Shown here: positions 42,637-59,239 of the stretch, in pieces
How positions within the stretch are numbered: position 1 is the stretch's first letter
Layout of the letters: the number at the start of each line of letters is the position of its first letter
IMG/VR virus record: IMGVR_UViG_3300045988_105383
Length of the DNA stretch: 64,000 nucleotides
From: a virus
Reading direction: 5' to 3' (one strand)
Program-made: the position numbers and the translations under genes
The notes under the pieces: generated by a model
Seen by the model: the letters and a program-made list of their open reading frames with translations, nothing else
Database searches by the model: none
What the model was told of the DNA's origin: nothing

Positions 42637-42646
42637 ACGTTTTTGC

Positions 42647-42670
42647 GGGACAAACGCAGAAATCGTGTAG
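42647..42670 (+). promoter_or_regulatory. Element-2 motif copy 2
   Basis: GGGACAAA-N11-TGTAG; 32 nt to ATG 42703. Confidence 0.55.
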
Positions 42671-42702
42671 CTATAAAGAAAAAGCAAAAAGGAGCACGTA
42701 AC

Positions 42703-43044: not shown

Positions 43045-43067
43045 GTCAAAAAAATCCCGCCTTCGGC

Positions 43068-43091
43068 GGGACAAATCGGAAAATACGGTAG
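43068..43091 (+). promoter_or_regulatory. Element-2 motif copy 3
   Basis: GGGACAAA-N11-GGTAG; 35 nt to ATG 43127. Confidence 0.6.
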
Positions 43092-43126
43092 CTTCAAAGT
43101 CAAAGAACAGAAACGAGGTACACACC

Positions 43127-43417: not shown

Positions 43418-43450
43418 AAAAACCGGGAGAAATCCCGGCTTTCTTTTTTT
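43418..43450 (+). terminator. Intrinsic terminator
   Basis: AAAAACCGGGA-gaaa-TCCCGG then a T-rich run. Confidence 0.6.
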
Positions 43451-43480
43451 CCCAAAAACGAGAAAATTTCCGAACCAAGC

Positions 43481-43504
43481 GGGACAAATCCAATTTTGAG
43501 GTAG
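43481..43504 (+). promoter_or_regulatory. Element-2 motif copy 4
   Basis: GGGACAAA-N11-GGTAG; 33 nt to ATG 43538. Confidence 0.6.
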
Positions 43505-43537
43505 CTATAAAGAAAAAACATAAAGGAGTCCTCCAAG

Positions 43538-43915: not shown

Positions 43916-43930
43916 GCGCACACAATTACA

Positions 43931-43956
43931 GCGCCGGATGAAATTCCGGCGTTTTT
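43931..43956 (+). terminator. Intrinsic terminator
   Basis: GCGCCGGA-tgaaa-TTCCGGCG-TTTTT. Confidence 0.65.
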
Positions 43957-43970
43957 CCTTTATCCAGTGC

Positions 43971-43994
43971 GGGACAAACGCCGATTTCCGGTAG
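43971..43994 (+). promoter_or_regulatory. Element-2 motif copy 5
   Basis: GGGACAAA-N11-GGTAG; 36 nt to ATG 44031. Confidence 0.6.
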
Positions 43995-44030
43995 AGGTAA
44001 AGGTAGAACATCAAAACTAATTTTGGAGGT

Positions 44031-44364: not shown

Positions 44365-44406
44365 AAAATATCCGGGGGACGTGAAAAATCCCCCGGATAT
44401 TTTTTT
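44365..44406 (+). terminator. Intrinsic terminator
   Basis: AAAATATCCGGGGGA-cgtgaaaaa-TCCCCCGGATATTTTTTT. Confidence 0.75.
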
Positions 44407-44416
44407 GCCCGTCAGC

Positions 44417-44440
44417 GGGACAACCGCAAAAAACCGGTAG
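44417..44440 (+). promoter_or_regulatory. Element-2 motif copy 6
   Basis: GGGACAAC-N11-GGTAG; 37 nt to ATG 44478. Confidence 0.6.
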
Positions 44441-44477
44441 AACCGAAGATAGAAAGAAAAAACGGAGGTACTTACTC

Positions 44478-44872: not shown

Positions 44873-44956
44873 CGTGCGTTCTTTGTGCGTTCGACTGTAT
44901 CAAAATTCACTTTTCCCGCATGTCATACTGAAATCAGAGAAAAATTTCAAATCCAC

Positions 44957-44980
44957 GGGACAAATTCAAATCTCCGGTAG
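44957..44980 (+). promoter_or_regulatory. Element-2 motif copy 7
   Basis: GGGACAAA-N11-GGTAG; 39 nt to ATG 45020. Confidence 0.6.
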
Positions 44981-45019
44981 CAATAACAGCGAAAAGAAAC
45001 CGACCACGGAGGAACGGCT

Positions 45020-45131: not shown

Positions 45132-45503
45132 ATGAAAAACACGAAATTTCTTCGTAAAATGTGCGGCTTTTCCGCGCGGCACGGCCTCGATATGGAGCCC
45201 GAGAAAATCAGCGTCGCCATCCGCTGCCGGACCTACGAGCAGTACCGGGCGGCGCTCGCCGCGGCCTATCGCCTGAGAAACGTGAAGATCGAGAATCTGT
45301 ACCATAGTCTGTTCATCCGCATCTACGATGCCGCCGACTGGCAGGCGTGGAAAGAAAGCGAGCAGCGCCGGCAGCAGATCGTCTATCGCTTCTGGGAGGC
45401 CATGCGCGAAAACGGCAGAGATCAAAAAGCCTCTCAGGCCGCAGCACACGACCTTGCCGTCCAGATCGGCGCTCTGAAGGAATACGAAGCCATCTACGCC
45501 TGA
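45132..45503 (+). CDS. Hypothetical protein
   Basis: 123-aa ORF. Confidence 0.5.
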   Translation: MKNTKFLRKMCGFSARHGLDMEPEKISVAIRCRTYEQYRAALAAAYRLRNVKIENLYHSLFIRIYDAADWQAWKESEQRRQQIVYRFWEAMRENGRDQKASQAAAHDLAVQIGALKEYEAIYA

Positions 45504-45519
45504 ACAGGAGGCCACGATC

Positions 45520-45672
45520 ATGAAATATAGCGAGATCATCCGAAGCATCGACGATATTTTCGACTACTTCAAATTTCACAACAAAAACATGACGAAAGCG
45601 CAGGAAGAAAAACTGTATGAGCTGCAAGACTTGATCCACGAACTTCGCATCACGCAGGAGAGAAATAAATGA
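45520..45672 (+). CDS. Small hypothetical protein (50 aa)
   Basis: Own translation MKYSEIIRSIDDIFDYFKFHNKNMTKAQEEKLYELQDLIHELRITQERNK; AGGAGG RBS. Confidence 0.45.
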   Translation: MKYSEIIRSIDDIFDYFKFHNKNMTKAQEEKLYELQDLIHELRITQERNK

Positions 45673-45833
45673 AACGAAATCAGCACCGCCGAACCTTTGA
45701 ATTTTTCAGCACAGAACAGCAAGCCGCCGCATTTGTGGCGGCTCGCAAAAAGCAGCGCCGCAAGGCGTACCTGACCCCGTGGACATCAGCAGACGGAACA
45801 GAACACAAGTTTATCGTCTGGTATTACATCTGA
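45669..45833 (+). CDS. Small hypothetical protein (54 aa)
   Basis: Own translation MKRNQHRRTFEFFSTEQQAAAFVAARKKQRRKAYLTPWTSADGTEHKFIVWYYI; ATGA overlap with the upstream ORF. Confidence 0.45.
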   Translation: MKRNQHRRTFEFFSTEQQAAAFVAARKKQRRKAYLTPWTSADGTEHKFIVWYYI

Positions 45834-45849
45834 ACAGGAGGAACAGAAA

Positions 45850-46116
45850 ATGACCGTATATATTGCGCTTCACACTTGGGATACCCCGGATAACGAGGGC
45901 AGCGAAATTCTTGGCGTTTACTCAAACTTTGAGAAAGCCCGTGAACAGATCGAGGCCGGAGCCGCCGCCATCCGCGAAGAGTACGACGATGACCTGTGGG
46001 AGGATGACATGACATGGGACGAACCCACAGAAATCCACCTCGGAAGAACCACGGATTTCATGGGAGACTATGCCACGATCTACAGCTGGGAGATCATCCC
46101 GCGCGAAATCGAATAA
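45850..46116 (+). CDS. Small acidic hypothetical protein
   Basis: 88 aa, AGGAGG RBS. Confidence 0.5.
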   Translation: MTVYIALHTWDTPDNEGSEILGVYSNFEKAREQIEAGAAAIREEYDDDLWEDDMTWDEPTEIHLGRTTDFMGDYATIYSWEIIPREIE

Positions 46117-46131
46117 AAAGCACCGGGAAAC

Positions 46132-46155
46132 GGGACAAATCCCGTTTCCCGGTAG
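46132..46155 (+). promoter_or_regulatory. Element-2 motif copy 8
   Basis: GGGACAAA-N11-GGTAG inside hairpin CCGGGAAACGGGA/TCCCGTTTCCCGG; 42 nt to ATG 46198. Confidence 0.6.
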
Positions 46156-46197
46156 ATACATGGGTGCAATAAAGCCATCAGGCAGGAGGTATTTAAA

Positions 46198-46860
46198 ATG
46201 ACGCAGCTCGAAATCTACCAGAAAATCGCCGATGCCGTGAACGCAGCAGCCGGTTCCAAGAATCCAAAAATGACCATCGTAACCGAAAGTGAGTTCGGCG
46301 GTGTGTACTTTTTGCACATCAATGCACATTCCGCAGATATCAAGCCTTATGCGCAGTACAAAGACGCGCTGACGATCTACTTCAAAAAGCGCGGTGGCCG
46401 CTCAGTCTATGGAATGCGCTTCTATGGTACAAAGCCCGTGGCAATCTTCTCCGGGTGGCAAGAGACAACATGGGCGCAGCCCAGAAGCTTCCTTTGCTTT
46501 GACAAGAATATGTTCTACGGTCTGGTTGATAGCTTCCCGAAGGAACAGAAGATTTCCGAAGAATCCGAGCGCGTTCACCTGTCCGAGATTCAGCAGAAGG
46601 GTAAGGTCTACAAGGTTGTCAGCATGAACACGGACGACCCGCGGCCGCGCATGATCGTCGAAACATTTGAAACCGTCGAGCATCTGAAAAAAGCATTCGA
46701 GACCACCGGAGAATTCCACAGCGTATCCTGCCGGGCCGAGCTGCAAGGCGCGCCGAAGATTAAAAACTTCTGCGGGCCGATGTACGACGGCGAGGACAGC
46801 CAGGGGCGCGCGGTCATCCGCTACGAAACGCAGGAGGTCTACGACATTCTCAGCGCCTGA
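46198..46860 (+). CDS. Hypothetical protein
   Basis: 220 aa, AGGAGG RBS. Confidence 0.5.
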   Translation: MTQLEIYQKIADAVNAAAGSKNPKMTIVTESEFGGVYFLHINAHSADIKPYAQYKDALTIYFKKRGGRSVYGMRFYGTKPVAIFSGWQETTWAQPRSFLCFDKNMFYGLVDSFPKEQKISEESERVHLSEIQQKGKVYKVVSMNTDDPRPRMIVETFETVEHLKKAFETTGEFHSVSCRAELQGAPKIKNFCGPMYDGEDSQGRAVIRYETQEVYDILSA

Positions 46861-46873
46861 TTTTAAAAATGGC

Positions 46874-46898
46874 GGGACAATCCCGCCTTTTCCCGTAG
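46874..46898 (+). promoter_or_regulatory. Element-2 motif copy 9
   Basis: GGGACAAT-N12-CGTAG; hairpin GGCGGGA/TCCCGCC followed by TTTT; 34 nt to ATG 46933. Confidence 0.55.
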
Positions 46899-46932
46899 AT
46901 ATAAAACCAGAACAGAAACCGGAGGTGCAACC

Positions 46933-47139
46933 ATGAAATACAGCAAAAAAACGGAACGTAAGCTTCTGGAAATTGCCATGCAGCATATGCCGCCCGTTGC
47001 AGATCGTGGAGACTTGAAAACGCGCAACTCAGACAGCGAGGACTTTCTCAATGTTGCTGTTTGGGGACTTCGGGACGCCCTGATGGAAGCATACGAACTC
47101 GGCAAGGATGAGAAGGGAGAAAACCGCCATGAAAGATGA
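46933..47139 (+). CDS. Small hypothetical protein
   Basis: 68 aa, GGAGGT RBS. Confidence 0.5.
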   Translation: MKYSKKTERKLLEIAMQHMPPVADRGDLKTRNSDSEDFLNVAVWGLRDALMEAYELGKDEKGENRHER

Positions 47140-47338
47140 CTACAGACTCGGCTTTGGGTATCTCGGAAATGGGCTGACGGTATGGAACAGGGCGAAAGAG
47201 GTAAATCACGACTATCAGACGGTCGCCCACATATCCTCTAGCGGAGAAATCACCTACTACAAACAGGATCTTCCGCAGTGTGTCCGGGCGCACATAGAAC
47301 AAGTTGCACAAGAAGAACGTGACCATAGAAGACTTTGA
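47129..47338 (+). CDS. Small hypothetical protein
   Basis: Start MKDDYRLGFGYLGNG inside track ORF 47108..47338; GGGAGA RBS. Confidence 0.45.
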   Translation: MKDDYRLGFGYLGNGLTVWNRAKEVNHDYQTVAHISSSGEITYYKQDLPQCVRAHIEQVAQEERDHRRL

Positions 47339-47372
47339 ATCGCACGATTTTAGATAAGAAGGGAGAAAAACC

Positions 47373-48596
47373 ATGTATTACATCATCAACCGAGAAACCG
47401 AGAAGCTGGAGCTTCATTTTGATAAATCCGAATACCAGGCGCTTTCTGACGATCAACAATCCACCATCAAAAGCAACTTCCTCTTTTCAAGATACGGCGG
47501 CTGTTGGGTCAGCCGCGCAAAAATCCCGAACCTCTGGCGCGCAGAACAGGTTGCAAAGAGCCTTGGCGCGGAGAATCAGGGAAAGACGGGTGAGCTTCTT
47601 TCCTTCGAGGAAAAAATGGAGCGCAAAGCAGCCCGCGCGGAAGAACGAGCCGAGCGCATGGACGCGCGCGCCGATGCAGCAGAGCAGCGCGGCGAACAGC
47701 TGCAAAAGCCCATCAACGCCAGGCGCGGCGATATTGCGTTCTTCACCCAGCCGAACATCAACACATCCTCCGGGCGCGCCTTCACGCGCCAGCGCGAAAA
47801 AATGTTCGCCGCCTTTGAGCGCGGCATGGACGAGTTCAAAAAATCGGAATACTACGCCGAACGTGCCGAAGCCGCACGCAGAACAGCAAATCTGGAAAAT
47901 TCCAAGGATAAGGCATTCTGCGACCGCCGCGTGAAGGATGCCGAGAAAAACATCCGGGCTATCCAAAAGAACCTCGAAGGCTACCGCGCGCGGCTCGAAC
48001 GCATCCGGAACGGCGAACAGCAGACCAGATTCAACGGAACAGTCATTGAACAGTCCGAAATCGAGCGCTGGATCGAGGACGCAGAAGAACGCCTGGAATC
48101 CGAAATCTCCCGCCTGTGCTATTATCAGTCCTGCATCGACGAGCTGGGCGGCGTACAGTACAGCCGTGAGAACATCAAGCCCGGCTACAAGGTAAAACTC
48201 AAGCGCTATGGCGTTTGCGAAGTTCTCAGCACCGGGCCGAAGAACATCGTATACGAGATTCTTTCCGGCGGAGCGGAGGGATTTACCGGACGCGCAGCCT
48301 ATGCCGAAATTCTGGAAGTGACCAGCTCCGAGGAAAAAGCGAAACCAACTCACCCCTTCAAAGTCGGCGATACCATCGTCGTAGAAGCAATTCGAGATAA
48401 CGGATTTGTGCGGGAGACCCTTGAAGTTATTAAAACGACCAAATTAACCGTATCCATGAAGAATCGGGCAACCGGGGCGATCATCTGCAAAACGCCGAAA
48501 ATCCGCTGGACCAGAGACGGAAACAAATGGGTGCTGTTCTTCACGAATACCGATGGCCTGCTCACCCAGTATATCTATCGCAACCCGGAAGCGTAA
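47373..48596 (+). CDS. DUF3560-like protein
   Basis: ...LSFEEKMERKAARAEERAERMDARADAAEQRGEQLQKPINARRGDIAFFTQPNINTSSGRAFTRQREKM... matches my recollection of DUF3560 architecture. Confidence 0.5.
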   Translation: MYYIINRETEKLELHFDKSEYQALSDDQQSTIKSNFLFSRYGGCWVSRAKIPNLWRAEQVAKSLGAENQGKTGELLSFEEKMERKAARAEERAERMDARADAAEQRGEQLQKPINARRGDIAFFTQPNINTSSGRAFTRQREKMFAAFERGMDEFKKSEYYAERAEAARRTANLENSKDKAFCDRRVKDAEKNIRAIQKNLEGYRARLERIRNGEQQTRFNGTVIEQSEIERWIEDAEERLESEISRLCYYQSCIDELGGVQYSRENIKPGYKVKLKRYGVCEVLSTGPKNIVYEILSGGAEGFTGRAAYAEILEVTSSEEKAKPTHPFKVGDTIVVEAIRDNGFVRETLEVIKTTKLTVSMKNRATGAIICKTPKIRWTRDGNKWVLFFTNTDGLLTQYIYRNPEA

Positions 48597-48613
48597 AAAA
48601 ACTTACCGGCAGT

Positions 48614-48638
48614 GGGACAAACCGTCTCCTGCCGGTAG
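48614..48638 (+). promoter_or_regulatory. Element-2 motif copy 10
   Basis: GGGACAAA-N12-GGTAG; stem CCGGCAG/CTGCCGG; 34 nt to ATG 48673. Confidence 0.6.
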
Positions 48639-48672
48639 CATTATATGTGAAATCAAAAAGGAGGCCGAAACA

Positions 48673-48987
48673 ATGACCAGAATCTACGAAGAAACCAGAT
48701 ACGACAAAGAAGCCGACGCGCTCGTCCACGTCGCCAACTGGAGTTTTACAGTCTATCCCGGCAGCAGTGAACAGTTCACCGTCTGCAAAAACGGCGTGGC
48801 AAAAACCGTCCGCGTCGAAGACTGCGGCAGCGAGTTCGTCTACAAGCTGCTGAAAACCAAGGTCAAGGCCGCTGGCGGCGCGCACGGGCTCTTTGAATGG
48901 CTCGACATGTGCCTTTCCGAAAAATTTGAAGAGTGCCACGCCTGGAAGGTCCTGCGCTGGTGCTTCGACACCTGCCGCCCGCTCTGA
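48673..48987 (+). CDS. Hypothetical protein
   Basis: Start MTRIYEETRYDKE inside track ORF 48553..48987; AGGAGG RBS. Confidence 0.5.
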   Translation: MTRIYEETRYDKEADALVHVANWSFTVYPGSSEQFTVCKNGVAKTVRVEDCGSEFVYKLLKTKVKAAGGAHGLFEWLDMCLSEKFEECHAWKVLRWCFDTCRPL

Positions 48988-49003
48988 GAAAGGAGAACAC
49001 AAC

Positions 49004-49195
49004 GTGAAGATTCGGGCAAACATCAACGGTAAAGTCTTTCAGCGAACCGTCCATAAAACGACTGTTGAATTTTCCGACGGAAGCCGCGAACGCTTCAACT
49101 GCGTATCGATCTCCGGCAGGGAATACGTCGTTCAGACCTGCAACGGAATCCCGGTCAGCGTCTATCCGCTGATTTCTTATCTTCTCATCCCGTAA
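49004..49195 (+). CDS. Small hypothetical protein (GTG start)
   Basis: AAGGAG RBS then GTG; VKIRANINGKVFQRTV... Confidence 0.4.
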   Translation: MKIRANINGKVFQRTVHKTTVEFSDGSRERFNCVSISGREYVVQTCNGIPVSVYPLISYLLIP

Positions 49196-49278
49196 AATTT
49201 CCGGAAACCGCTGGAAAATCCGGAAGAGCCGTGATAAACTATGGATACCAGCATAAAGTAAAAAAGGAGAACAGAATC

Positions 49279-49506
49279 ATGTTTTACGATCATAACGAAT
49301 ATACCATCATCGGCGGCCAGTTCATCGTGAACAAAACCAACAAACCCATGGAGCCCGGCGACATGGCTGCCATCCATGTCTACTCCGCCCCGGATGATAT
49401 CTCTGGCGTTGAAACCTACGGCAAGGAGCTCGTCGCCCAGAACAGAGAGATCGTCGAAAAAGACGGCAAAAAGCAGCTCTGCAAAGTCGCCATCGTCCGT
49501 ATCTAA
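49279..49506 (+). CDS. Small hypothetical protein
   Basis: Start MFYDHNEYTIIGG inside track ORF 49231..49506; AAGGAG RBS. Confidence 0.5.
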   Translation: MFYDHNEYTIIGGQFIVNKTNKPMEPGDMAAIHVYSAPDDISGVETYGKELVAQNREIVEKDGKKQLCKVAIVRI

Positions 49507-49510
49507 ACCA

Positions 49511-49544
49511 GAAACAGCCGCCCGATTGGGCGGCTGTTTCTTTT
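49511..49544. terminator. Strong (bidirectional) intrinsic terminator
   Basis: GAAACAGCCGCCC-gatt-GGGCGGCTGTTTC-TTTT. Confidence 0.8.
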
Positions 49545-49729
49545 CAAAAAACTACAATCAGAATTCCTGCGAAAGCCACAGCTATTCCAATACATAGAAT
49601 TACCGATGTCAGGCATCCGTTCGGCTCCCCCTTCGGGTGTGACTGCCGCCAATAGGAATTGAACGCCTGCCGCGCCCTGTTCCTGCAATACCTTCCTCCA
49701 AATCCTCCCCAAGTTCCTCTCCGTCCCAT
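49544..49729 (-). CDS. Small basic protein with C-terminal transmembrane tail (61 aa)
   Basis: MGRRGTWGGFGGRYCRNRARQ...CLTSVILCIGIAVAFAGILIVVF; TAGGAGGT RBS; only minus-strand gene in this arm. Confidence 0.5.
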   Translation of the reverse strand: MGRRGTWGGFGGRYCRNRARQAFNSYWRQSHPKGEPNGCLTSVILCIGIAVAFAGILIVVF

Positions 49730-49764
49730 AATTTTACCTCCTATAATTTCTCCATAAAACAATA

Positions 49765-49793
49765 TTGACTTTTTGATAATCATAATATATAAT
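49765..49793 (+). promoter_or_regulatory. Consensus-like sigma-70 promoter
   Basis: TTGACT-N17-TATAAT. Confidence 0.7.
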
Positions 49794-49812
49794 GGTAATC
49801 AGAAAGTGAGGT

Positions 49813-49998
49813 GTGAACGTGACAAAACCGATGGGCCGTCCCAAAATTGAGAACCCGAAAGAAACGCAGCTTGGCGTTAGACTGAATACGGACGAATTAC
49901 GAAAACTGGACGAAAACGCCCAGCATTATAATGAAACCAGAACGCAGTCACTCCGACGTGGTATCGAAGTTTTGAACCAGGCCATAAAGTCAGAATAA
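49813..49998 (+). CDS. Ribbon-helix-helix (CopG-type) protein
   Basis: ...GRPKIENPKETQLGVRLNTDELRKLDENAQHYNETRTQSLRRGIEVL; the start may be GTG 49813/49819 or ATG 49831. Confidence 0.6.
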   Translation: MNVTKPMGRPKIENPKETQLGVRLNTDELRKLDENAQHYNETRTQSLRRGIEVLNQAIKSE

Positions 49999-50235
49999 TA
50001 TAAAACGCCCCCTCTTTGCGGTTAGTTTGGCGACCGAGCGCAAAGAAGGAGCCTCCCTTGAGGGAATACCTCGCGGTAAATTTATTATACCGTGCAGTAT
50101 ACCCTCTGTCAAATGCAAATTTGAACGGAGGGGATTTTTATACCCATTTTCAGGTGTAACAAAAAACATTTTGGTTGCGTGCTACGCTTGAAATGAAGGG
50201 GCATCCCCCATCAACTGATTTACGAGGAGAATTTT

Positions 50236-51033
50236 ATGGATTTACAAATGTTCAATAATCCGAGATTTGGTGAAGTTCGCACAATCGAAGAAGGCGGAAA
50301 GGTTTTGTTCTGTGGTAACGATATTGCAAAGGCACTCGGATATAAAAGCCCAAAGGATGCGATTGCCGCACATTGCAAGGGGGCGGTAAAACGCCGCCTA
50401 GGGGTGCAGACTGGTACAAAAGCAGATGGAACTCCTGCTATGCAGGAAGTAGAAATGACTTTCATTCCAGAGGGTGACATTTACCGCCTTGCCGCTCGCT
50501 CCAAGCTACCGGGTGCAGACGAGTTCGAGAGATGGATTTTCGATGAAGTACTTCCCAGCATCCGGCGTAACGGCGCGTACATGACACCAGAAGTCATCGA
50601 GCGTACTCTGACAGACCCGGATTACATCATCCAGCTTGCAACTACGCTCAAAATGGAGCAGCAAAAGCGCAGAGCGCTGGAAGAAAAGGTCAAGGCCGAC
50701 GCGCCTGCGGTATTCTTCGCCGAAGCCGTCACCGGTGCGGACACAAACATCCTCATTCGGGACATGGCGAAGCTGCTTGCGCAAAACGGCACAGACATCG
50801 GCGGAAATCGACTCTATGAAGTTTTGCGTCGGGACGGATATCTCATCAAATCGGGCAGCGATTACAACATGCCGACGCAGAAATCCATGGAACTTGGCTT
50901 GTTTTTCGTGCGTGAAACGCCGCGCATTTCAAAAGATGGTGCTGTGATTGACCGCACCACAAAGGTTACGCTAAAAGGGCAGAAATATTTCATCAACAAG
51001 TATGCGACCCAAAAAGCGCTCGCCAAAATGTAA
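50236..51033 (+). CDS. Phage antirepressor (Bro-N plus KilAC/ANT C-terminal domain)
   Basis: ...FGEVRTIEEGGKVLFCGNDIAKALGY... and ...ILIRDMAKLLAQNGTDIGGNRLYEVLRRDGYLIK. Confidence 0.8.
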   Translation: MDLQMFNNPRFGEVRTIEEGGKVLFCGNDIAKALGYKSPKDAIAAHCKGAVKRRLGVQTGTKADGTPAMQEVEMTFIPEGDIYRLAARSKLPGADEFERWIFDEVLPSIRRNGAYMTPEVIERTLTDPDYIIQLATTLKMEQQKRRALEEKVKADAPAVFFAEAVTGADTNILIRDMAKLLAQNGTDIGGNRLYEVLRRDGYLIKSGSDYNMPTQKSMELGLFFVRETPRISKDGAVIDRTTKVTLKGQKYFINKYATQKALAKM

Positions 51034-51048
51034 CAGGAGGATTTTGAT

Positions 51049-51252
51049 ATGACCATTCAGGAACTTGTGAACGTTATGGAAAAGCATGTCAAAAGATTCT
51101 CCGTCTTCTACGACGAGGACGCGCTTGAGCTTGACACCTCCAATCCTATTGTGATGGCCGGTATCGGGCGGCTGACGGTCGATTCGGTCGACCCCATCCC
51201 CGTAGACGATGGCGTGACCGTCTATATCCATCCTGCCGTCAAAATTCTGTGA
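51049..51252 (+). CDS. Small hypothetical protein (tandem paralog 1)
   Basis: MTIQELVNVMEKH...NPIVMAGIGRLTV aligns with the next ORF. Confidence 0.5.
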   Translation: MTIQELVNVMEKHVKRFSVFYDEDALELDTSNPIVMAGIGRLTVDSVDPIPVDDGVTVYIHPAVKIL

Positions 51253-51285
51253 CCAGAAACCAAAATCCAAAGGAGAGTTCTCATA

Positions 51286-51492
51286 ATGACCATTAAAGAA
51301 GTTTATGACCACATGGAGAATGTCGATGACTGGTGCGTCAGCGTTGACGGCGTTTCATCCCCAATCGTGTTAGAGAATCCGGCGATCATGTCCGGAGTTG
51401 CGAAGTTTCATGTCCAGAAAGTCTATCTGCTTGCCGAGGCAGATAAAATTACTGCCGAACTGGCTCTCGCTACGACAATCGAATCCGATTAA
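51286..51492 (+). CDS. Small hypothetical protein (tandem paralog 2)
   Basis: MTIKEVYDHMENV...NPAIMSGVAKFHV. Confidence 0.5.
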   Translation: MTIKEVYDHMENVDDWCVSVDGVSSPIVLENPAIMSGVAKFHVQKVYLLAEADKITAELALATTIESD

Positions 51493-51512
51493 AAGAATTT
51501 TTGAAAACTGGC

Positions 51513-51537
51513 GGGACAAATTCAGTCCTGCCAGTAT
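51513..51537 (+). promoter_or_regulatory. Element-2 motif copy 11 (variant)
   Basis: GGGACAAA-N12-AGTAT; stem CTGGCGGGAC/GTCCTGCCAG; 86 nt to ATG 51624. Confidence 0.5.
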
Positions 51538-51544
51538 CTATAAG

Positions 51545-51591
51545 GATGTAACATAATTCATTTTTTCGCCGTGATACGATAAAATCAGAGG
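51545..51591 (+). repeat. 46-bp direct repeat, copy A (GATGTAACATAATTCATTTT...TGATACGATAAAAT)
   Basis: First 20 nt identical to 54472..54491, then TGATA(C/T)GAT(A/G)AAAAT conserved. Confidence 0.7.
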
Positions 51592-51623
51592 CCACAAAAC
51601 GTCAAAAAGAAAGGAAAAGAACC

Positions 51624-51977
51624 ATGGACGAACTTGACCGCAAAATCTACACACTCCTCAAGCGCATCGGCGTTCCTGCCGACATCGACGGATACGACTA
51701 TATTTTCCACGCCATCCGTCTTCTTGTCGACAACGGATACCGGAGCATTCCTATCACGAAACCCGGCGGGCTTTACGACCAGATCGCAGCACGCTACAAG
51801 ACCATGCCGCTGCGCGTCGAACGCAGCATCCGCCATGCGGTAGAGCTGACATTCGACCGCATCCCGTACACCGTCAGCGAGCAGGTCTTCGGCGCAACGA
51901 TCGACCCGATGAAGGGGAAACTCACCAACAGCGATTTCATCCGGCAGCTCGCACTGGAGATTCGCTACAGCAACTAG
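51624..51977 (+). CDS. Orphan Spo0A C-terminal (DNA-binding) domain protein
   Basis: IGVPADIDGYDYIFHAI / ...RYKTMPLRVERSIRHAVELTF / KLTNSDFIRQLALEIR align with B. subtilis Spo0A IGVPAHIKGYLYLREAI / [21 protein letters not shown] / KPTNSEFIAMVADKLR; no receiver domain. Confidence 0.85.
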   Translation: MDELDRKIYTLLKRIGVPADIDGYDYIFHAIRLLVDNGYRSIPITKPGGLYDQIAARYKTMPLRVERSIRHAVELTFDRIPYTVSEQVFGATIDPMKGKLTNSDFIRQLALEIRYSN

Positions 51978-51995
51978 AAAAAAATCTCAAAGGCC

Positions 51996-52019
51996 GGGAC
52001 AAATTCAGATTTCCGGTAG
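51996..52019 (+). promoter_or_regulatory. Element-2 motif copy 12
   Basis: GGGACAAA-N11-GGTAG; 35 nt to ATG 52055. Confidence 0.6.
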
Positions 52020-52054
52020 CATTCAAAACACACAACATTTTAGGAGGTAGCACC

Positions 52055-52288
52055 ATGCGTCATTCCCGCACAAATCTCACCCTTCTCCCGGCCTGTCTGC
52101 CGGAGAACGTCTTCGAGCCCATCGTTGACCGCCATCACGCAGAAGTCCGTCTCCGTTCCGCCCAGCGGGCGGAGGCGGAGCGGATTCACCGTCTTCGCTG
52201 CCGTGTCCGCCTGATTTTGGCCGTCGGCGTAGTCCTCTCTGCGGTCCTCGGTGTTCTGGTCGGCTCCGGAATTCTGCCGCTGGCGTGA
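52055..52288 (+). CDS. Small protein with C-terminal transmembrane helix
   Basis: 77 aa, AGGAGG RBS; ...LILAVGVVLSAVLGVLVGSGILPLA. Confidence 0.5.
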   Translation: MRHSRTNLTLLPACLPENVFEPIVDRHHAEVRLRSAQRAEAERIHRLRCRVRLILAVGVVLSAVLGVLVGSGILPLA

Positions 52289-52302
52289 AAGGAGGCCAGA
52301 TC

Positions 52303-52548
52303 ATGAAATATTCCACGCTTTCCTATCTGGTCGCACTCATGAACAAGGACATCGAAACGCGCCGCGGGGCGCTGGAGCTTGCGAGAAAGACCTACAACAT
52401 GAAGGTCGACGAGGCAGACGGAATGTCCAACCGCAAGGAAGCGAAAGAGCACATCTCCTACGCGAAAGAAATCTATGACCGGGCACGGGAAAATCTGCTC
52501 TGCGCCGAACAGGCCCTCGCGGATTTCACCGAGCACGATTTCCGCTGA
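52303..52548 (+). CDS. Small hypothetical protein
   Basis: Start MKYSTLSYLVALMNKD (AGGAGG RBS) inside track ORF 52285..52548. Confidence 0.5.
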   Translation: MKYSTLSYLVALMNKDIETRRGALELARKTYNMKVDEADGMSNRKEAKEHISYAKEIYDRARENLLCAEQALADFTEHDFR

Positions 52549-52566
52549 AAATTTTTCCGCACCGGC

Positions 52567-52591
52567 GGGACAAATCCCATTCCGCCGGTAG
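52567..52591 (+). promoter_or_regulatory. Element-2 motif copy 13
   Basis: GGGACAAA-N12-GGTAG; stem CCGGCGG/CCGCCGG; 42 nt to ATG 52634. Confidence 0.6.
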
Positions 52592-52633
52592 CAATACATG
52601 CGAAATCAAACTCACCCACAGGAGGTACATAAT

Positions 52634-53221
52634 ATGGGCCAGCGTTCACAAATTTACGTCCGCTTCGACGGGCAGCTCATCGTCGCAAACTATTACCAGT
52701 GGAACTACTCCGAGCGAATGATCTCGCGCGCCAGATATGGCATTGACTTTATCGCATCCAACCTCGATTATAAATGGTTTTTCCTTCGGGATGTCAATAT
52801 CGAGCACCTGCGCCGCATCTTCGATGTGAATTTTGATATGAAGGATTATCAGATTTCCCAAAGGCTCATCGACGAGTGGAAAGAGCAGTTTTCCTCTGAT
52901 CCATTTAACGATGTGGTATTCAACTGGCAGGGCAACAATAACGGTCAGCTTTTCATCAACATTTCAAAAGAAGGAAAAATTTCCTACGCTTTCAGAAAAA
53001 TTGAAGACAAATCCGGGCAGGAGCCGATGTCTGCCTCCGAATACATGAATTGGGACCGACCCAACTGGCAGGAAAGCGAAACCCTCACAAAAGCTGAAAA
53101 ACAGACCTGCTTCCGCAATATCAAGTACATCGAAAAGACGGCCCGTCTCATGACGCCGGACGAACTGAATGAATTTCTTACACACGACTATGGTTATGAA
53201 TCTTTGAAGGAGGCCGATTGA
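52634..53221 (+). CDS. Hypothetical protein
   Basis: Start MGQRSQIYVRFDG (GGAGGT RBS) inside track ORF 52598..53221. Confidence 0.5.
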   Translation: MGQRSQIYVRFDGQLIVANYYQWNYSERMISRARYGIDFIASNLDYKWFFLRDVNIEHLRRIFDVNFDMKDYQISQRLIDEWKEQFSSDPFNDVVFNWQGNNNGQLFINISKEGKISYAFRKIEDKSGQEPMSASEYMNWDRPNWQESETLTKAEKQTCFRNIKYIEKTARLMTPDELNEFLTHDYGYESLKEAD

Positions 53222-53374
53222 GTGGAAACTGCAACTGTCAATCTTGGAGACTACGGCGAGCTTTTCTGTGAAAGCTGCGGTGCGCCGCTCGAATGTGACC
53301 AAAACGGAGATTTACCGGAACTGTGCCCTGTCTGTGGAACCAAACTCAACTATTTGAAAACATTGGAGGAATAA
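53222..53374 (+). CDS. Small zinc-ribbon protein (50 aa, GTG start)
   Basis: Own translation VETATVNLGDYGELFCESCGAPLECDQNGDLPELCPVCGTKLNYLKTLEE; AGGAGG 8 nt upstream. Confidence 0.4.
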   Translation: METATVNLGDYGELFCESCGAPLECDQNGDLPELCPVCGTKLNYLKTLEE

Positions 53375-53376
53375 AT

Positions 53377-53658
53377 ATGTCTGGCTTTTCTCATTTTCGG
53401 GGGCTCATTGTAAACCTTCCAAATTTCAATGTGGATCATTGGCTATTCTCGCAACACCGGAATGGATACAGCGCAGCCTATCGTCCTCACTATCCAGAGA
53501 AAACCGCAGCAGACTTTATGATCTATTACGAATCTCCCACTGGCGAAACGCGGACCGGAACATGGACAATTTCCGCGGATACGGATTGCGTTCCAATCGT
53601 GAAGAAATTCAAATCTTTTTTCGATTTGCGCAAATCCATCTCAAGCATAGACACATAA
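53377..53658 (+). CDS. Hypothetical protein
   Basis: Start MSGFSHFRG (GGAGGA RBS) inside track ORF 53323..53658. Confidence 0.5.
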   Translation: MSGFSHFRGLIVNLPNFNVDHWLFSQHRNGYSAAYRPHYPEKTAADFMIYYESPTGETRTGTWTISADTDCVPIVKKFKSFFDLRKSISSIDT

Positions 53659-53672
53659 ATTCCAAAAATGCC

Positions 53673-53696
53673 GTGACAAATTCAGTTTTTCGGTAG
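53673..53696 (+). promoter_or_regulatory. Element-2 motif copy 14 (variant)
   Basis: GTGACAAA-N11-GGTAG; 41 nt to ATG 53738. Confidence 0.55.
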
Positions 53697-53737
53697 AACT
53701 AACTATACAACCACCCCCAACGAAAGGAGCCATCCCC

Positions 53738-54235
53738 ATGACCATTACACAAACTCAGGCAAACGCGCTGGACGAGCTGCGCACCGTTGGCATTGCCAGA
53801 TACGCAGCCATGAAATCCGCAGAAAAAGCGTATGCAGACGCGCAGGAGCGCGAACGGAAGGCCTACCAGTACGCCGCCGAGCACGGAGAGTTTTACACCG
53901 AGGAAGGCAAGCGCGTCACCGGCGAGCCTGACGCTTTTCTGATGGACGAGCAGAAATTCGCAGTGGAATTCTGCCCGCTCATCGCTGAGGGCTATAAGGT
54001 GCTCTTCGGCCTCGACTATCCGGTCGGCTATACGCCAGTCTTCGACCAGTATCTCGACCCGCTGAACAAGGCCCGCCGTGCTTACCGGCAGATTGCTGCC
54101 GACTATCTCCGCATCCTTGGCCGCGAACAGGAAGCGCAGAAAATCGAGCGTGCCCTGAACACCTACGTTCATCCGAAATACATGGAGGAGCTGGACCGTA
54201 TCAACCGGCAGTTCCTCGGCATCAAGGAGGCCTGA
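53738..54235 (+). CDS. Hypothetical protein
   Basis: 165 aa, AAGGAG RBS. Confidence 0.5.
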   Translation: MTITQTQANALDELRTVGIARYAAMKSAEKAYADAQERERKAYQYAAEHGEFYTEEGKRVTGEPDAFLMDEQKFAVEFCPLIAEGYKVLFGLDYPVGYTPVFDQYLDPLNKARRAYRQIAADYLRILGREQEAQKIERALNTYVHPKYMEELDRINRQFLGIKEA

Positions 54236-54237
54236 CT

Positions 54238-54483
54238 ATGCGCACCACGCCCAGAAAACGGAAGCCCGTCCGCCCCATCGACCGCCTGCCGCGCCAGTAC
54301 CGCGACAGCGTTGCAGCTTTTTTCAAGGATGATGACGGCTGGTGGATTATGCTGGAGGAGGACGGGCCGTACCACTTCCCTACTTACTACAGCAAATATA
54401 CCATCCACGAAGATACCCAGCGCGGGGCCATGGCGCAGTTTCTCGCCTGCGTCGCAGAAAAGCCAAAAGCAGATGTAACATAA
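54238..54483 (+). CDS. Small hypothetical protein
   Basis: 81-aa ORF; its last codons lie in repeat copy B. Confidence 0.5.
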   Translation: MRTTPRKRKPVRPIDRLPRQYRDSVAAFFKDDDGWWIMLEEDGPYHFPTYYSKYTIHEDTQRGAMAQFLACVAEKPKADVT

Positions 54484-54517
54484 TTCATTTTAGACGCATG
54501 ATATGATGAAAATAGGA
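54472..54517 (+). repeat. 46-bp direct repeat, copy B
   Basis: See 51545..51591; sits immediately upstream of the recombinase RBS. Confidence 0.7.
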
Positions 54518-54527
54518 GGGCAAATCA

Positions 54528-55616
54528 ATGGCAGCACCCATCAAGGCCGAGAAAAAATTTATGGCCGCTATGGCCGCCTACGAAAACAATCTCCGCGCCA
54601 TCGGCCGCGCAGAACAGACCATCCGGTCCAAAGATTTCATCTTCATGGCCTTTTCGGCCTTCATGATTGAAGAGCGAAGCAACTGGGACCACGAGGAGAG
54701 TTTCACCGACATTCAGGCGTGGCGCGATCAACTCCGCCGTGAAGGAAAGAAGCAATCCACAATCCAGAAATATCTTCGGGAACTCGCAGCATTTTACAAC
54801 TACGCATCCTCTGAACAGCTTGGCGAATCTCGCTTCTATGACCGAAATCCCGTTTCCAAGCTGCTCATTCCGGATATCAAAAAGGAGCAGCGTCGTCCCT
54901 ATGAACAGTTCCTGACGGACGATCAGGTCATCCTCCTCTGGCGGAACAATCCCCCGCAGGGCCTCCGAAGGCCGCAGTTCTGGGAGCGGAATTATGCTAT
55001 CGTTGTTCTCCTGCTCACGACCGAGATTCGGAACAGCGAACTCCTGGCGCTTACGCCGAACGACCTGGACTGGGAAAACTCCGAGATCGTTGTGGAACAC
55101 GGCAAGGGAGACAAATTCCGGAACGTGGACTTCCCGCTCGTCGCCCAGACCGCTGTCCGGCTCTATCTTTGCAGCGGCCTCCGACCGCAAAACGCCCGCG
55201 ATGACGAAGTGCTCTTCGGAACCTACGCCGAAAAAACATTCTCCGGTCAGAACAGCGGCGAATCCTGGCATCCGGGAACGCGCCAATGGCTCTCCGACGT
55301 CGTCCGCCGGCATGTAAAAACCGTCACAGGAGTCGATATGATCCGCTCGCACGACCTTCGCCATGTCGGCGCACGGCTCGACCTGAACAGCGGCATGTCC
55401 TTTGAGGAGCTGCAAGCCAAGCTCGGCCACGAATCCGTCATCGTCACGCAGCTCTATTCCGGCAAGCTCACAAGCCGGAAGTCACGCAAGAAAACCAAAC
55501 AGGTGCAGATGGAAAAGGACCGTCAGGCCCAGCGAAACATCCTTCGCCTCCAGCAAAAGGGCGACAGCTTTTTTCTCTCCGCGCTGACAAGCGCACCTTT
55601 TCCAATCCACGCATAA
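54528..55616 (+). CDS. Xer-like tyrosine recombinase/integrase
   Basis: SAM-like N domain ...STIQKYLRELAAFYNYA; catalytic pattern TEIRNSEL...GKGDKFR...HDLRHV...LGHES...QLY. Confidence 0.8.
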   Translation: MAAPIKAEKKFMAAMAAYENNLRAIGRAEQTIRSKDFIFMAFSAFMIEERSNWDHEESFTDIQAWRDQLRREGKKQSTIQKYLRELAAFYNYASSEQLGESRFYDRNPVSKLLIPDIKKEQRRPYEQFLTDDQVILLWRNNPPQGLRRPQFWERNYAIVVLLLTTEIRNSELLALTPNDLDWENSEIVVEHGKGDKFRNVDFPLVAQTAVRLYLCSGLRPQNARDDEVLFGTYAEKTFSGQNSGESWHPGTRQWLSDVVRRHVKTVTGVDMIRSHDLRHVGARLDLNSGMSFEELQAKLGHESVIVTQLYSGKLTSRKSRKKTKQVQMEKDRQAQRNILRLQQKGDSFFLSALTSAPFPIHA

Positions 55617-55806
55617 CTGCCGGACATTCTCCGGCCCTACGGTCGGGCGCAGTTGCTCTCCGGGCTCCTTTCCTCCCGGACAAGCCGGTGCAGCTCCGGC
55701 TCCGACCATCCGATTTCGCCGCAAGTCTGATACCTCCTTGCGGCGAGGCATATCGGCTCCTTTCTATGTAGAAAAGCGGCCGCCAAAGTAAGCGAAGGCG
55801 CTCGCC

Positions 55807-55830
55807 GGAACAAATCTGAGATTCCGGTGC
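55807..55830 (+). promoter_or_regulatory. Element-2 motif copy 15 (degenerate)
   Basis: GGAACAAA-N11-GGTGC with stem CCGGAA/TTCCGG; heads the ORF-free tRNA-containing region. Confidence 0.45.
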
Positions 55831-56026
55831 TCCAAACTGAGATGTTTGGCTTTTGGTTGTTGGGAAGAACGCTCCCGCACCAACGTAAAACCGGGGAGCC
55901 TCTACGCAGACCGCCGGCGCGAGAACCGGCTGTCTGTCATCTGATCCCCCTCCTGAAATCATGCTGGCAGCCCGGAAAGACGGGCCGTGCCGCCGCGGCT
56001 GACCTCCCCGCGCCGGCACGAAATAT

Positions 56027-56100
56027 CCGGTATTGGTGTAGTGGCAGCACATCAGTCCTCCAAACTGAGAGCGCGAGTTCAACCCTCGTATACCGGTCCA
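56027..56100 (+). tRNA. tRNA-Gly(UCC)-like gene with non-canonical C33
   Basis: Hand fold: acceptor CCGGTAT/ATACCGG, D arm GTGT-AGTGGCA-GCAC, anticodon arm TCAGT-CCTCCAA-ACTGA, T arm GCGAG-TTCAACC-CTCGT, T-CCA; 74 nt. Confidence 0.55.
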
Positions 56101-58069: not shown

Positions 58070-58130
58070 AATTTATGAGAAAATATGCTCCGCCTATATC
58101 AGTTCCTGGCCGAAAGGAGCCGCAATATGA
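57879..58130 (+). CDS. Overlapping-frame ORF with a coiled-coil tail (separate small gene or displaced C-terminus of the MazF-like gene)
   Basis: ...VELEAIPLESVTERDAAALREKVIRLEAQNEIYEKICSAY reads like genuine protein. Confidence 0.3.
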   Translation: MQRSSSVSAFLRQRLQWQQQKKNPSLPSKPCGIVELEAIPLESVTERDAAALREKVIRLEAQNEIYEKICSAYISSWPKGAAI

Positions 58131-59239
58131 TCTATCTGGACTACGCCGCAACCTCCCCGGCTCTGAAAACAGCACTTTTCGCTTTTCAGCGGACAAGCCG
58201 GTATTTCTGGGGAAACCCAAACAGCAGCCACTCCTTCGGCCAGTCCGCCGAAAAAATGCTCTTCTCGCAGCGGGAGATCGTCGCTGATTGCCTCCATTGC
58301 GAGCCGGAGCAGGTGATCTTCACCTCCTCCGCCACAGAAAGCATCAGCATCGCCCTGCATGCTTTAGCCCGTGTCAATGAACTCTATATTTCGGATGTTG
58401 AGCATCAATCGGTCATTTCCGCCTATCAATCCGCTCAGTCGATGATTCAACCGTTTGCAGATGGCGATTCCGTCTGCCATATCCACACCAACAACGAGAC
58501 CGGTCGGGTCTACGACCTGAAAAAAGAGCTCGCTGGCGCAGAGCATACCTTTTCCGACTGCACAGCGGCCATGGGCAAGACACCCTTGAACTTCCGGAAA
58601 TCTGGTCTCGATTACATCTGCGGAAGCGGCCATAAATTTGGAGCCCCGGTCGGCATCGGTGTTCTGATTGCCAGAAATCTAGACGGAATCCTATCCCAGA
58701 CACATTTTGGAACACCATCTGTTCCTCTTGCCGCTGCCTTTGCGCAGGCTTTGTACTTCCGCACGCAGCATCTGCGGGAATTTTCCGAGATGGCTGAGGT
58801 CCTGCATGACCGTCTCATCACCGGCATCCTGAACGAACTTCCAGACGCGCAGCTCAACGGAGAGCTCTCGCACGGAAGCAGCGGCACACAGTCGCCCTAT
58901 ATCGCAAACGTTTCCTTCCCCGGCGTGGAAAACCACGCGCTCGTCCTTCGCCTCGCAGCCGACGGTGTTATGGTCTCCTCCGGGGCAGCCTGCTCCAGTG
59001 GAGACCCACAGCCATCCCGCGTCCTGATAAGCTCCGGCTACTCCGAAGAACGTGCTGCGAGTGCCATCCGATTCTCCTTCGACTACTCCCTGTCTGAACC
59101 AAACGAGACCTCCAGCGCCTACGGCCGAAGCGAAGCGACATATCTTGCAAAAATCGACGAGGCCGTAGAACTCGTAGCAAAAAACGTGAAAGCGTTAAAA
59201 ACATTTGATATATCCGGGACAAATCCGAAATCCGAGTAG
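58127..59239 (+). CDS. NifS/IscS-type cysteine desulfurase (class V aminotransferase)
   Basis: MIYLDYAATSP..., PLP-lysine motif SGHKFGAP, catalytic loop SSGAACSS; AAAGGAG RBS; the stop codon lies inside motif copy 16. Confidence 0.8.
   Translation: MIYLDYAATSPALKTALFAFQRTSRYFWGNPNSSHSFGQSAEKMLFSQREIVADCLHCEPEQVIFTSSATESISIALHALARVNELYISDVEHQSVISAYQSAQSMIQPFADGDSVCHIHTNNETGRVYDLKKELAGAEHTFSDCTAAMGKTPLNFRKSGLDYICGSGHKFGAPVGIGVLIARNLDGILSQTHFGTPSVPLAAAFAQALYFRTQHLREFSEMAEVLHDRLITGILNELPDAQLNGELSHGSSGTQSPYIANVSFPGVENHALVLRLAADGVMVSSGAACSSGDPQPSRVLISSGYSEERAASAIRFSFDYSLSEPNETSSAYGRSEATYLAKIDEAVELVAKNVKALKTFDISGTNPKSE
59216..59239 (+). promoter_or_regulatory. Element-2 motif copy 16
   Basis: GGGACAAA-N11-AGTAG; 49 nt to ATG 59289. 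Confidence 0.5.

Follow-up and report, generated by a model that had tools for sequence, protein, structure and literature searches.

Predicted composite promoter-terminator junctions in the small-cassette array of a gut phage

Introduction

Promoter-early stem-loops (PeSLs), described in the T4-type phages RB49/phi1, PST and nt-1 (Arbiol et al. 2010, PMC2839356; Comeau et al. 2014, PMC4122927), are intergenic modules composed of an AT-rich region, a promoter and a stem-loop that may sit between or over the -35 and -10 boxes. Promoter and terminator activity have both been shown for them by experiment, one PeSL stem-loop equalled rrnB T1 in termination, and modular shuffling and mini-circles have been documented (PMC2839356; PMC4122927). 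Here we describe a 64,000-nucleotide (nt) stretch of viral DNA (IMG/VR record IMGVR_UViG_3300045988_105383; hereafter the window), which represents all or much of a phage genome and which carries a bipartite motif, repeated between small open reading frames (ORFs) and at some copies embedded in a hairpin. Judged by architecture, the arrangement comes closest, among described systems, to the PeSLs of T4-type phages, in which this design has already been reported; we use the term PeSL-type junction for a functional class and not for a homology family.

In PeSLs and in the window alike, an intergenic module recurs, always in the same orientation, among small accessory ORFs; an AT-rich tract contains the upstream stop codon and is followed by -35/-10 boxes, a Shine-Dalgarno sequence and a start codon; the stem-loop varies in sequence and in position (upstream of, over or between the boxes) and tolerates G.T pairs; and cassettes, which here are presumably insulated, are shuffled between relatives at the modules. 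The promoter considered here differs in not being sigma70-like and in probably being read by a phage extracytoplasmic function (ECF)-like sigma factor. The host is a Gram-positive gut anaerobe (the phage being of an Oscillospiraceae/Faecalibacterium-like type), there is no sequence relation to PeSLs, and, whereas the activities and mini-circles of PeSLs are experimental, the junctions here are known from sequence alone.

Phage sigma factors with promoter classes of their own include phiEco32 gp36, an ECF-family sigma, and SPO1 gp28 and gp33/34. As in those phages, a small phage sigma would here redirect the host core polymerase to near-identical promoters that depart from the host consensus; the regulon, however, is apparently an accessory-cassette array rather than structural genes, the spacing of the blocks is shorter than in the usual ECF promoter, and no curated model reaches its cut-off on this sigma. 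With moderate confidence, we interpret the repeated sites as composite promoter-terminator junctions, in which a predicted phage-specific promoter module heads each small cassette and the hairpins provide a transcript-end layer for the cassette upstream.

A repeated promoter-like module

The motif consists of an A/T tract, the block GGGACAAAT, 13-14 nt and GTAG-A-ATAAA. Exact matches to GGGACA-N14/15-GTAG number 13 in the window, where 0.08 would be expected, and all of them lie on the plus strand between 41824 and 59216. With two variants, at 51513 (..CAGTAT) and 53673 (GTGACA..), we accepted 15 copies, again on the plus strand only, which span 17.4 kb (41.8-59.2 kb); there is none in the 41-kb minus-strand arm of the window. 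Comparison was made with 33 related loci, human-gut IMG/VR contigs of 30-120 kb that were located through their DUF3560 protein (66-81% identical) and that share the same architecture. In the window and in these relatives the motif is repeated in one orientation between small accessory ORFs, with one copy per cassette junction, and across the 33 loci a looser form has 423 occurrences on the strand of the genes and 7 on the opposite one.

A profile of 219 unique copies shows AAAAWWTTT at -19..-11, then gC-GGGACAAAt, a poorly conserved spacer and cc(G)GTAGA-w-a-t-A-a-A-R-R-T. The two conserved blocks are unpaired and held at a fixed 13/14-nt spacing; under relaxed matching, ACAAA is constant and the G positions vary only occasionally in true copies. 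The end of the GTAG block precedes the start codon by a median of 45 nt (interquartile range 42-56), and a ribosome-binding site accompanies the downstream gene at 202 of the 219 copies. Neither GGGACA nor GTAG-A-ATAAA matches the sigma70 consensus TTGACA-17-TATAAT, which is itself represented by promoters elsewhere in the window. By its sequence, the anatomy of the motif is that of a putative bipartite promoter with an UP-like element, distinct from the host consensus. An Rfam scan covered the motif with no family, an exact-motif scan of IMG/VR returned single chance matches in coding regions only, and in the literature we found no published description of the motif or of the sigma clade discussed below, the motif string matching primers only.

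Stem-loops at the junctions

The initial annotation of this region drew attention to hairpins whose stems differ between copies and remain complementary, and proposed a structured site rather than a plain promoter. We number the copies as that annotation did (1-14 and 16). Among the stems it quoted, those of copies 1, 8, 9, 10 and 13 pair perfectly and those of copies 11 and 12 need one G.T pair each; its copy 15 (55807, GGAAC..GGTGC) was not counted, as both invariant blocks are absent and no gene lies at the right distance. Folding significance was expressed as a z score against dinucleotide shuffles, a strong call being z <= -3. Eight of the 15 window copies (1, 2, 3, 8, 9, 10, 11 and 13) reach this level, copies 12 and 14 are weak and copies 4, 5, 6, 7 and 16 give no folding signal, so that 7 of the 15 have no significant stem.

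CCGG pairs with itself and is partly conserved ahead of TAG; for this reason the stem statistics used a stricter null, the arm swap, in which the left half of one copy is joined to the right half of another. In a non-redundant set of 75 copies (the window and the 33 related loci), perfect stems of at least 8 base pairs (bp) occur in 11 copies against 0.9 expected (none of 300 permutations reaches 11), stems of at least 7 bp in 12 against 2.8, and stems of at least 6 bp in 21 against 9. Stem length proved to be the statistic that was needed, for the minimum free energy of the whole module is barely distinguishable from that of arm-swapped chimeras, with equal medians. Pairing is under selection, and it is so in a minority of copies, about 15-30% of the non-redundant set; a significant stem is absent from about 70-85% of these family copies. 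The registers vary (i+j = 9, 10, 11, 13, 16 and 18), as do the lengths, from 6 to 14 bp, and orthologous copies differ by one-sided changes, wobbles (G-C to G.T) or mismatches only, with no classical covariation. Column-wise covariation analysis, which had been suggested as a check, was given up on account of these differing registers and one-sided changes. Compensatory stems do point to selection, as had been claimed, though in a minority of copies and without two-sided change between orthologues. The hairpins are independently evolved stem-loops and not one conserved or homologous structured site, and the description of the motif as such a site was overstated: most copies have no significant hairpin, the registers differ and the conserved blocks are unpaired. 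Across the family, long stems are commoner with a 14-nt spacer (about 9/23) than with a 13-nt spacer (6/52).

Where the hairpins lie depends on the room available between genes. Weak hairpins are uninformative here, since 82% of random coding windows, taken as a control, reach -7 kcal/mol; after this threshold failed, the classification was run at -10, -12 and -15 kcal/mol. Hairpins at or below -20 kcal/mol are found at 20% of junctions against 4% of random coding windows. A stem-loop at or below -12 kcal/mol is present at about 40% of junctions and is equally common where the distance from stop codon to GGGAC is short, that is 30 nt or less (15/34, 44%), and where it is long (17/40, 42%). With a short gap the strong hairpin overlaps the motif in 15 of 34 cases and lies upstream in none; with a long gap it lies upstream in 12 of 40 and overlaps in 5 of 40 (Fisher p = 0.003 for overlapping and 0.0003 for upstream hairpins; the dependence persists at -10 and -15 kcal/mol). 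Each of the 12 strong upstream hairpins has the appearance of a canonical terminator, with an A-tract, a GC-rich stem and a T-run. A direct two-by-two comparison of upstream terminator with bridging stem, for which a crude terminator finder was used, gave p = 0.06 only.

The same division is seen within the window. Copies 2, 4, 5, 6 and 7 have 54-152 nt of room, each with an upstream terminator or terminator-like stem (canonical at 2, 5 and 6), and the overlapping stems fall in copies 3 and 8-14, which have 14-24 nt. For copies 8-14 it had been noted that the hairpin begins 13-20 nt after the stop codon with no separate terminator, and we likewise find 14-21 nt from stop codon to GGGAC. The stem arms fall exactly within the two parts of the module that are not conserved, which are the spacer and the 10 bases ahead of GGGAC.

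The individual copies, all on the plus strand, illustrate this range. Copy 1 (41805-41860, GGGACA at 41824; z -3.35) is the first module of the rightward array; its stem, ATCGGCGGC/GCCGCCGAT, lies on either side of the GGGACAAAT block, and a sigma70-like promoter (41780-41808) stands just 5' of it. Copy 2 (42628-42685, GGGACA at 42647) has a canonical terminator upstream (42607-42628), the T-run of which pairs weakly with the A-rich spacer. In copy 3 (43049-43105, motif at 43068), 24 nt 3' of a stop codon, the hairpin TCCCGCC-TTCG-GCGGGA (z -3.22) is preceded by an A-run; its 3' arm falls within the GGGAC block (GCGGG), and it does not reach across to GGTAG. Copy 4 (43462-43520, motif at 43481; z 0.0) has no overlapping hairpin and a terminator-like stem upstream (43423-43438), copy 5 (43952-44010, motif at 43971) a canonical terminator upstream (43930-43953), and copy 6 (44398-44455, motif at 44417) the upstream terminator CCGGGGGAC..GTCCCCCGG followed by a T-run. 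Copy 7 (44938-44995, motif at 44957; z -0.07), which is without a hairpin, heads a four-gene operon (45132-46116).

Copy 8 (46113-46170, motif at 46132), 16 nt 3' of a stop codon, has a perfect stem of 13-14 bp, CCGGGAAACGGGA/TCCCGTTTCCCGG, around CAAA (z -8.08, -27.1 kcal/mol). The stem of copy 9 (46855-46912, motif at 46874), GGCGGGA/TCCCGCC (z -3.02), is followed by TTTT inside the spacer and thus resembles a terminator hairpin embedded within the promoter. Copy 10 (48595-48652, motif at 48614), 18 nt 3' of a stop codon, forms CCGGCAG(T)GGGAC/GTCTCCTGCCGG (z -6.36). Copy 11 (51494-51551, variant at 51513), which precedes a gene for a protein with only a Spo0A_C domain, has a degenerate second block (CAGTAT) and the stem CTGGCGGGAC/GTCCTGCCAG, with its one G.T pair (z -6.63). 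Copy 12 (51977-52034, motif at 51996) has a weak stem, CCGGGA/TTCCGG (z -1.91), copy 13 (52548-52605, motif at 52567) the stem CCGGCGG/CCGCCGG (z -3.38), and copy 14 (53654-53711, variant GTGACA at 53673) no significant hairpin (z -1.39). Copy 16 (59197-59255, motif at 59216) is without a hairpin (z +0.98); the TAG within its GTAG block serves as stop codon for a class-V aminotransferase gene (58127-59239), and the module overlaps the end of that coding sequence.

A sigma-like protein as candidate reader

The candidate reader of the motif is a divergent ECF-like sigma factor of 236 amino acids (aa), encoded at 40037-40747 on the minus strand and thus divergently from the array. Pfam, NCBIfam and PHROGs gave weak sigma/ECF matches, among them the PHROG 'RNA polymerase sigma factor' (E 1.2e-5, residues 59-234). 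An AlphaFold model with a mean predicted local distance difference test (pLDDT) score of 81 indicates that the protein has a sigma-like fold: about 29 of its top 30 matches among PDB structures are sigma factors, mostly ECF, with probabilities mostly of 0.85-0.99 in the top 15. There is also an extra N-terminal helical segment. A profile built from 54 diverse relatives matches E. coli sigmaE, AlgU and CnrH over sigma2 and sigma4 (E 1e-4 to 9e-4), and Pfam Sigma70_ECF is matched by 28 of these 54 family members. Sigma-like sequences fall into roughly 150 clusters.

ECF promoters have a GGAAC-type -35 and a CGT-type -10 element about 16-17 bp apart. The blocks GGGAC and (C/G)GTA look like ECF boxes; the distance from the G of GGGAC to the G of GTAG is 20-21 nt, leaving a gap of 14-15 bp between the boxes. 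In every relative whose locus extends that far, the sigma-like gene adjoins the array. We found no motif copy upstream of 40037-40747, so that autoregulation from the protein's own promoter type is not seen, and we recognised no anti-sigma among the neighbours of the gene. The protein had no match in GTDB species-representative genomes, and searches of IMG/VR for distant sigma relatives returned none.

Two contigs, L124 and L125, encode sigma-like proteins that are only 32-36% identical and show the same divergent layout of small ORFs. Their arrays (L124 230-1433 and L125 492-1328, both on the minus strand) carry a different motif, GGTTTCC-N15-17-GATTGGTA, in six copies, and no copy of the GGGACA type; three of the six have stems bridging the -35 block, such as that at L124 1001 (-25.8 kcal/mol). 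Sigma clade and motif type change together, and from the evidence of this section as a whole we favour the sigma-like protein as the probable reader.

In a third sigma-like clade (29% identity), represented by contig L126 (6940-7110 and 9513-10010, both on the minus strand), the sigma gene is divergent from about 33 small ORFs packed 10-25 nt apart, and another repeated element, TTTGTTGAAATTGYTGCGTCTCACTTTGGGCTTTT, is present in two copies only.

Reassortment of cassettes and the recombinase

Cassette-order variants had been suggested as something to look for, and between relatives both content and order do vary. Motif junctions combine 59 groups of upstream flanks with 58 groups of downstream flanks in 103 different ways. 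Of the 59 upstream groups, 27 have two or more downstream partners, compared with 9 of 54 where junctions of the same arrays lack the motif (p = 0.0011). The same motif core is found with swapped flanks on both sides; the core and spacer of copy 5, for example, recur identically in relatives with four different upstream and two different downstream flanks, and the DUF3560 cassette has a different location in one relative (L060). The exchange points fit homologous recombination inside the shared motif core, and reassortment is explained most simply by homologous recombination between the repeats, by analogy with PeSLs.

A tyrosine recombinase had been predicted at 54528-55616 (plus strand), and it is real (Pfam Phage_integrase, E 1e-17). 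It is Xer-like and lies at the distal end of the array, where it is conserved in relatives. We considered whether it is an integron integrase and ruled this out, as it scores 44 bits against a cut-off of 265 on the integron-integrase model TIGR02249 and higher on Xer-type models. Just 3' of its gene, the 13 nt at 55829-55841 (CTCCAAACTGAGA) are identical to 56058-56070, in the anticodon arm of a phage tRNA-Gly (56027-56100). This identity may represent an att core or an integration remnant, and the rejected copy 15 overlaps the 55829-55841 site. The Xer-like affinity of the recombinase, its place at the array end and the adjacent copy of the anticodon arm suggest a role in ordinary integration or resolution. 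In the minus-strand arm, a plus-strand island (27523-30412) contains small ORFs and a second tyrosine integrase (29306-30412; PHROG integrase, E 2e-35), giving this phage two tyrosine recombinases; the island is possibly a lysogeny module or an inserted element.

Interpretation and alternatives

In the arrangement that we propose, each module would run from an UP-like A/T tract (AAAAWWTTT) over about 10 free bases to the -35-like block gcGGGACAAAt, and through a spacer of 13-14 mostly free bases to a -10-like (c)GGTAGA and wATAAArrT, with the start codon about 45 nt further on behind a ribosome-binding site. Host RNA polymerase would be directed to the motif by the divergent ECF-like sigma of the phage (40037-40747, minus strand), the gene for which would itself be expressed leftward from a sigma70-type control region at 41.6-41.8 kb. 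The hairpins would form a separate, facultative layer, each being the stem-loop with which the transcript of the cassette upstream ends or is terminated. Given a long gap, an ordinary A-tract/stem/T-tract terminator would stand upstream of the motif; given one of 14-24 nt, the stem would be confined to the only promoter positions left free, namely the 10 bases ahead of GGGAC and the spacer that precedes GGTAG, and the -35 block would be placed in the loop or the inner stem. A restriction of the stems to free promoter positions would account for arms that differ between copies yet remain complementary. Each cassette would be transcriptionally insulated, and the 45-bp modules may double as homology patches for the exchange, deletion and movement of cassettes between related phages. 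The initial annotation had offered three options, and the first of them, a fused transcript-end and promoter module, fits best, as the position of the hairpin follows the intergenic gap.

Several observations weigh against this reading. The sigma assignment combines weak sequence scores, all below curated cut-offs, with fold similarity, and the covariation of sigma clade with motif type comes from two short contigs and one longer one. The spacing of the blocks is 2-3 bp shorter than in characterised ECF promoters, and the Spo0A_C-only protein, conserved in the same phages, could replace the sigma-like protein as reader or act beside it. A U-tract (5 or more T) follows none of the 20 strong overlapping hairpins, copy 1 has a good stem yet no upstream gene to terminate, and internal G.T pairs outnumber A.C pairs in the stems by 12 to 7, a difference that is not significant and leaves neither strand marked as the functional one. 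The ends of homology blocks show only a slight concentration at motif modules relative to other gene borders. Initiation at the motif, and termination or 3'-end protection by overlapping hairpins that lack a U-tract, are what we infer from this arrangement.

Spo0A activates at spoIIG-type promoters, and the gene at 51624-51977 (plus strand) encodes a Spo0A C-terminal DNA-binding domain (E 3.6e-25) without a receiver domain. As an alternative factor, this protein could be a constitutively active DNA-binding domain that binds GGGACAAA and activates host polymerase carrying sigmaA (or another host sigma), leaving the sigma-like protein to serve other promoters. It is conserved in relatives, and in most of them its gene has an upstream element of its own that is not the motif, so that it could be made first; moreover, the bottom strand of the motif reads ATTTGTCCC and shares TTTGTC with the 0A box, the consensus of which is TTTGTCRAA, GACAAA resembling half of the reversed box. 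We nevertheless regard this alternative as unlikely. The invariant GTAG block and the sequence after it are unlike a sigmaA -10 element, the protein falls to 33-44% identity in relatives whose motif is unchanged, the L126 clade has a sigma gene and divergent array with no Spo0A_C in 20 kb, and it is the sigma clade with which the motif type shifts. A different possibility concerns the strand on which the hairpins act. An A-run followed by a stem is, on the minus strand, a stem followed by a U-run, and the hairpins might there stop antisense transcripts running back through the array. The three best minus-strand terminator-like matches are motif hairpins (46154-46121, 43072-43054 and 46887-46871), and 5 or more A stand just upstream of 10 of the 20 strong overlapping hairpins, which on paper makes them better antisense than sense terminators, a further point against our reading. 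The A-run, however, is part of an A/T tract conserved at all copies with or without a hairpin, minus-strand promoters are few in the array, the shift of the hairpin with upstream gene spacing is more simply explained by a sense-strand function, and the excess of G.T over A.C leans, short of significance, to the plus strand; antisense termination seems to us quite improbable.

Two further alternatives, both raised by the initial annotation, would make the fold itself the functional site. At the early promoters of phage N4, as here, a short GC-rich hairpin coincides with the promoter, and the stems considered here might be a promoter part, as an extruded or single-stranded site of that kind or as a cruciform that modulates sigma binding. 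The -35-like block is in every case flanked by the stems or included in them, a different motif in a distant clade is surrounded in like manner, and copy 1 has its stem without an upstream gene. The N4 hairpin, however, is obligatory and stereotyped and needs a giant virion RNA polymerase, whereas the hairpin here is optional, being absent as a significant stem from 7 of the 15 window copies and most family copies, is variable in register and in length, and is tied to the distance from the upstream stop codon; nor does the window, the only part of the genome seen, contain an N4-type virion RNA polymerase gene (its largest ORF has 616 aa). We hold a hairpin-form promoter to be very improbable. 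It is scarcely credible, finally, that the 54528-55616 recombinase acts on the motif copies as folded recombination sites in an integron-like cassette system. The resemblance lies in small ORFs in one orientation with one repeated, folded-looking site per cassette, in a nearby tyrosine recombinase conserved at the array end in relatives, and in variable cassette order and content; cassettes do reassort, and to that extent the comparison stands. The attC site, however, is an imperfect palindrome of 57-141 bp that is folded in every cassette, and integron cassettes are promoterless. Here the conserved core is 45 bp, in keeping with the annotation's own objection that the sites are far shorter than attC, and is asymmetric, not palindromic and mostly unfolded; a promoter-like motif and a ribosome-binding site accompany every cassette; the recombinase is not IntI, and the tRNA-Gly anticodon-arm identity beside it suggests an ordinary att site; and the exchange points are those expected of homologous recombination in the shared core.

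Genome context

The first 41.6 kb of the window lie on the minus strand and include genes for portal, virion protein, RecT, SSB, a DnaC-like loader and a clamp-like protein. From 41.8 kb onwards the genes are on the plus strand and mostly small, and include those for ArdC-N-like, DUF3560, antirepressor and Spo0A_C-only proteins, the Xer-like recombinase, two tRNAs and MazF. Against GenBank phages, megablast returned short matches only, including one to the RAGATH-5 region of Faecalibacterium phage FP_Toutatis. In the window, a RAGATH-5 RNA (Rfam RF02685, 57.9 bits, above the gathering score) lies at 40775-40824 on the minus strand, in the 85-nt gap between a 252-aa gene (40833-41591) and the sigma-like gene, and is the region's only match to FP_Toutatis.

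In the divergent control region between the two arms (41643-41794), a 26-mer resembling an operator, TATTTTAGCACTTATTAYGTGCCGCG, is present four times and is interspersed with sigma70-like promoters that point both ways (41780-41808 on the plus strand, with TG, and 41685-41656 on the minus strand). A second upstream element, GATGTAACATAATTCATTTT..CRTGATAYGAT, occurs at 51545-51584 before the Spo0A_C gene and at 54472-54511 before the recombinase gene, and in weaker form at 50153-50192 before the antirepressor gene. The pattern TGTAAC-N17-CRTG has 3 matches in the window against 0.37 expected; we considered it as a canonical ECF promoter for the sigma and rejected it, as the AAC/TGTAAC half is not conserved in relatives, whereas the extended -10-like half is.

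A motif-less module at 49500-50230 has consensus sigma70 promoters on both strands, TTGACA-17-TATAAT at 50112-50084 (minus) and TTGACT-17-TATAAT at 49765-49793 (plus). It also contains a small minus-strand ORF (49544-49783), a short plus-strand ORF (49813-49998), which on reading its sequence may encode a ribbon-helix-helix-like protein, and a bidirectional-looking terminator at about 49507-49545. The module looks like a moron or an immunity-type insert.

Implications

The hairpin observation alone reveals no new kind of structured site. Only tentatively, we would extend our reading to an undescribed clade of divergent ECF-like sigmas in gut Oscillospiraceae phages, each subclade of which may have a bipartite promoter of its own (GGGACAAA..GGTAG in the window, GGTTTCC..GATTGGTA elsewhere) at the head of every cassette in a large accessory array that reshuffles rapidly. 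The hairpins around the -35 box that lack a U-tract might then be insulators and also take part in a promoter-based cassette exchange, a recombinase-independent analogue of the integron in phages of Gram-positive anaerobes.

If the composite-junction reading is correct, it would provide a promoter and sigma pair for abundant, genetically intractable human-gut phages, with orthogonal variants in sister clades. The PeSL principle of insulated cassettes that recombine at their own regulatory modules would extend beyond the T4-type phages of Gram-negative hosts, and PeSL-like junctions would be supported as a general solution for keeping hyperplastic accessory regions. For annotation, the motif would mark the boundaries of cassettes and what is probably the unit exchanged horizontally, with anti-restriction-like, antirepressor and toxin genes among the cargo.

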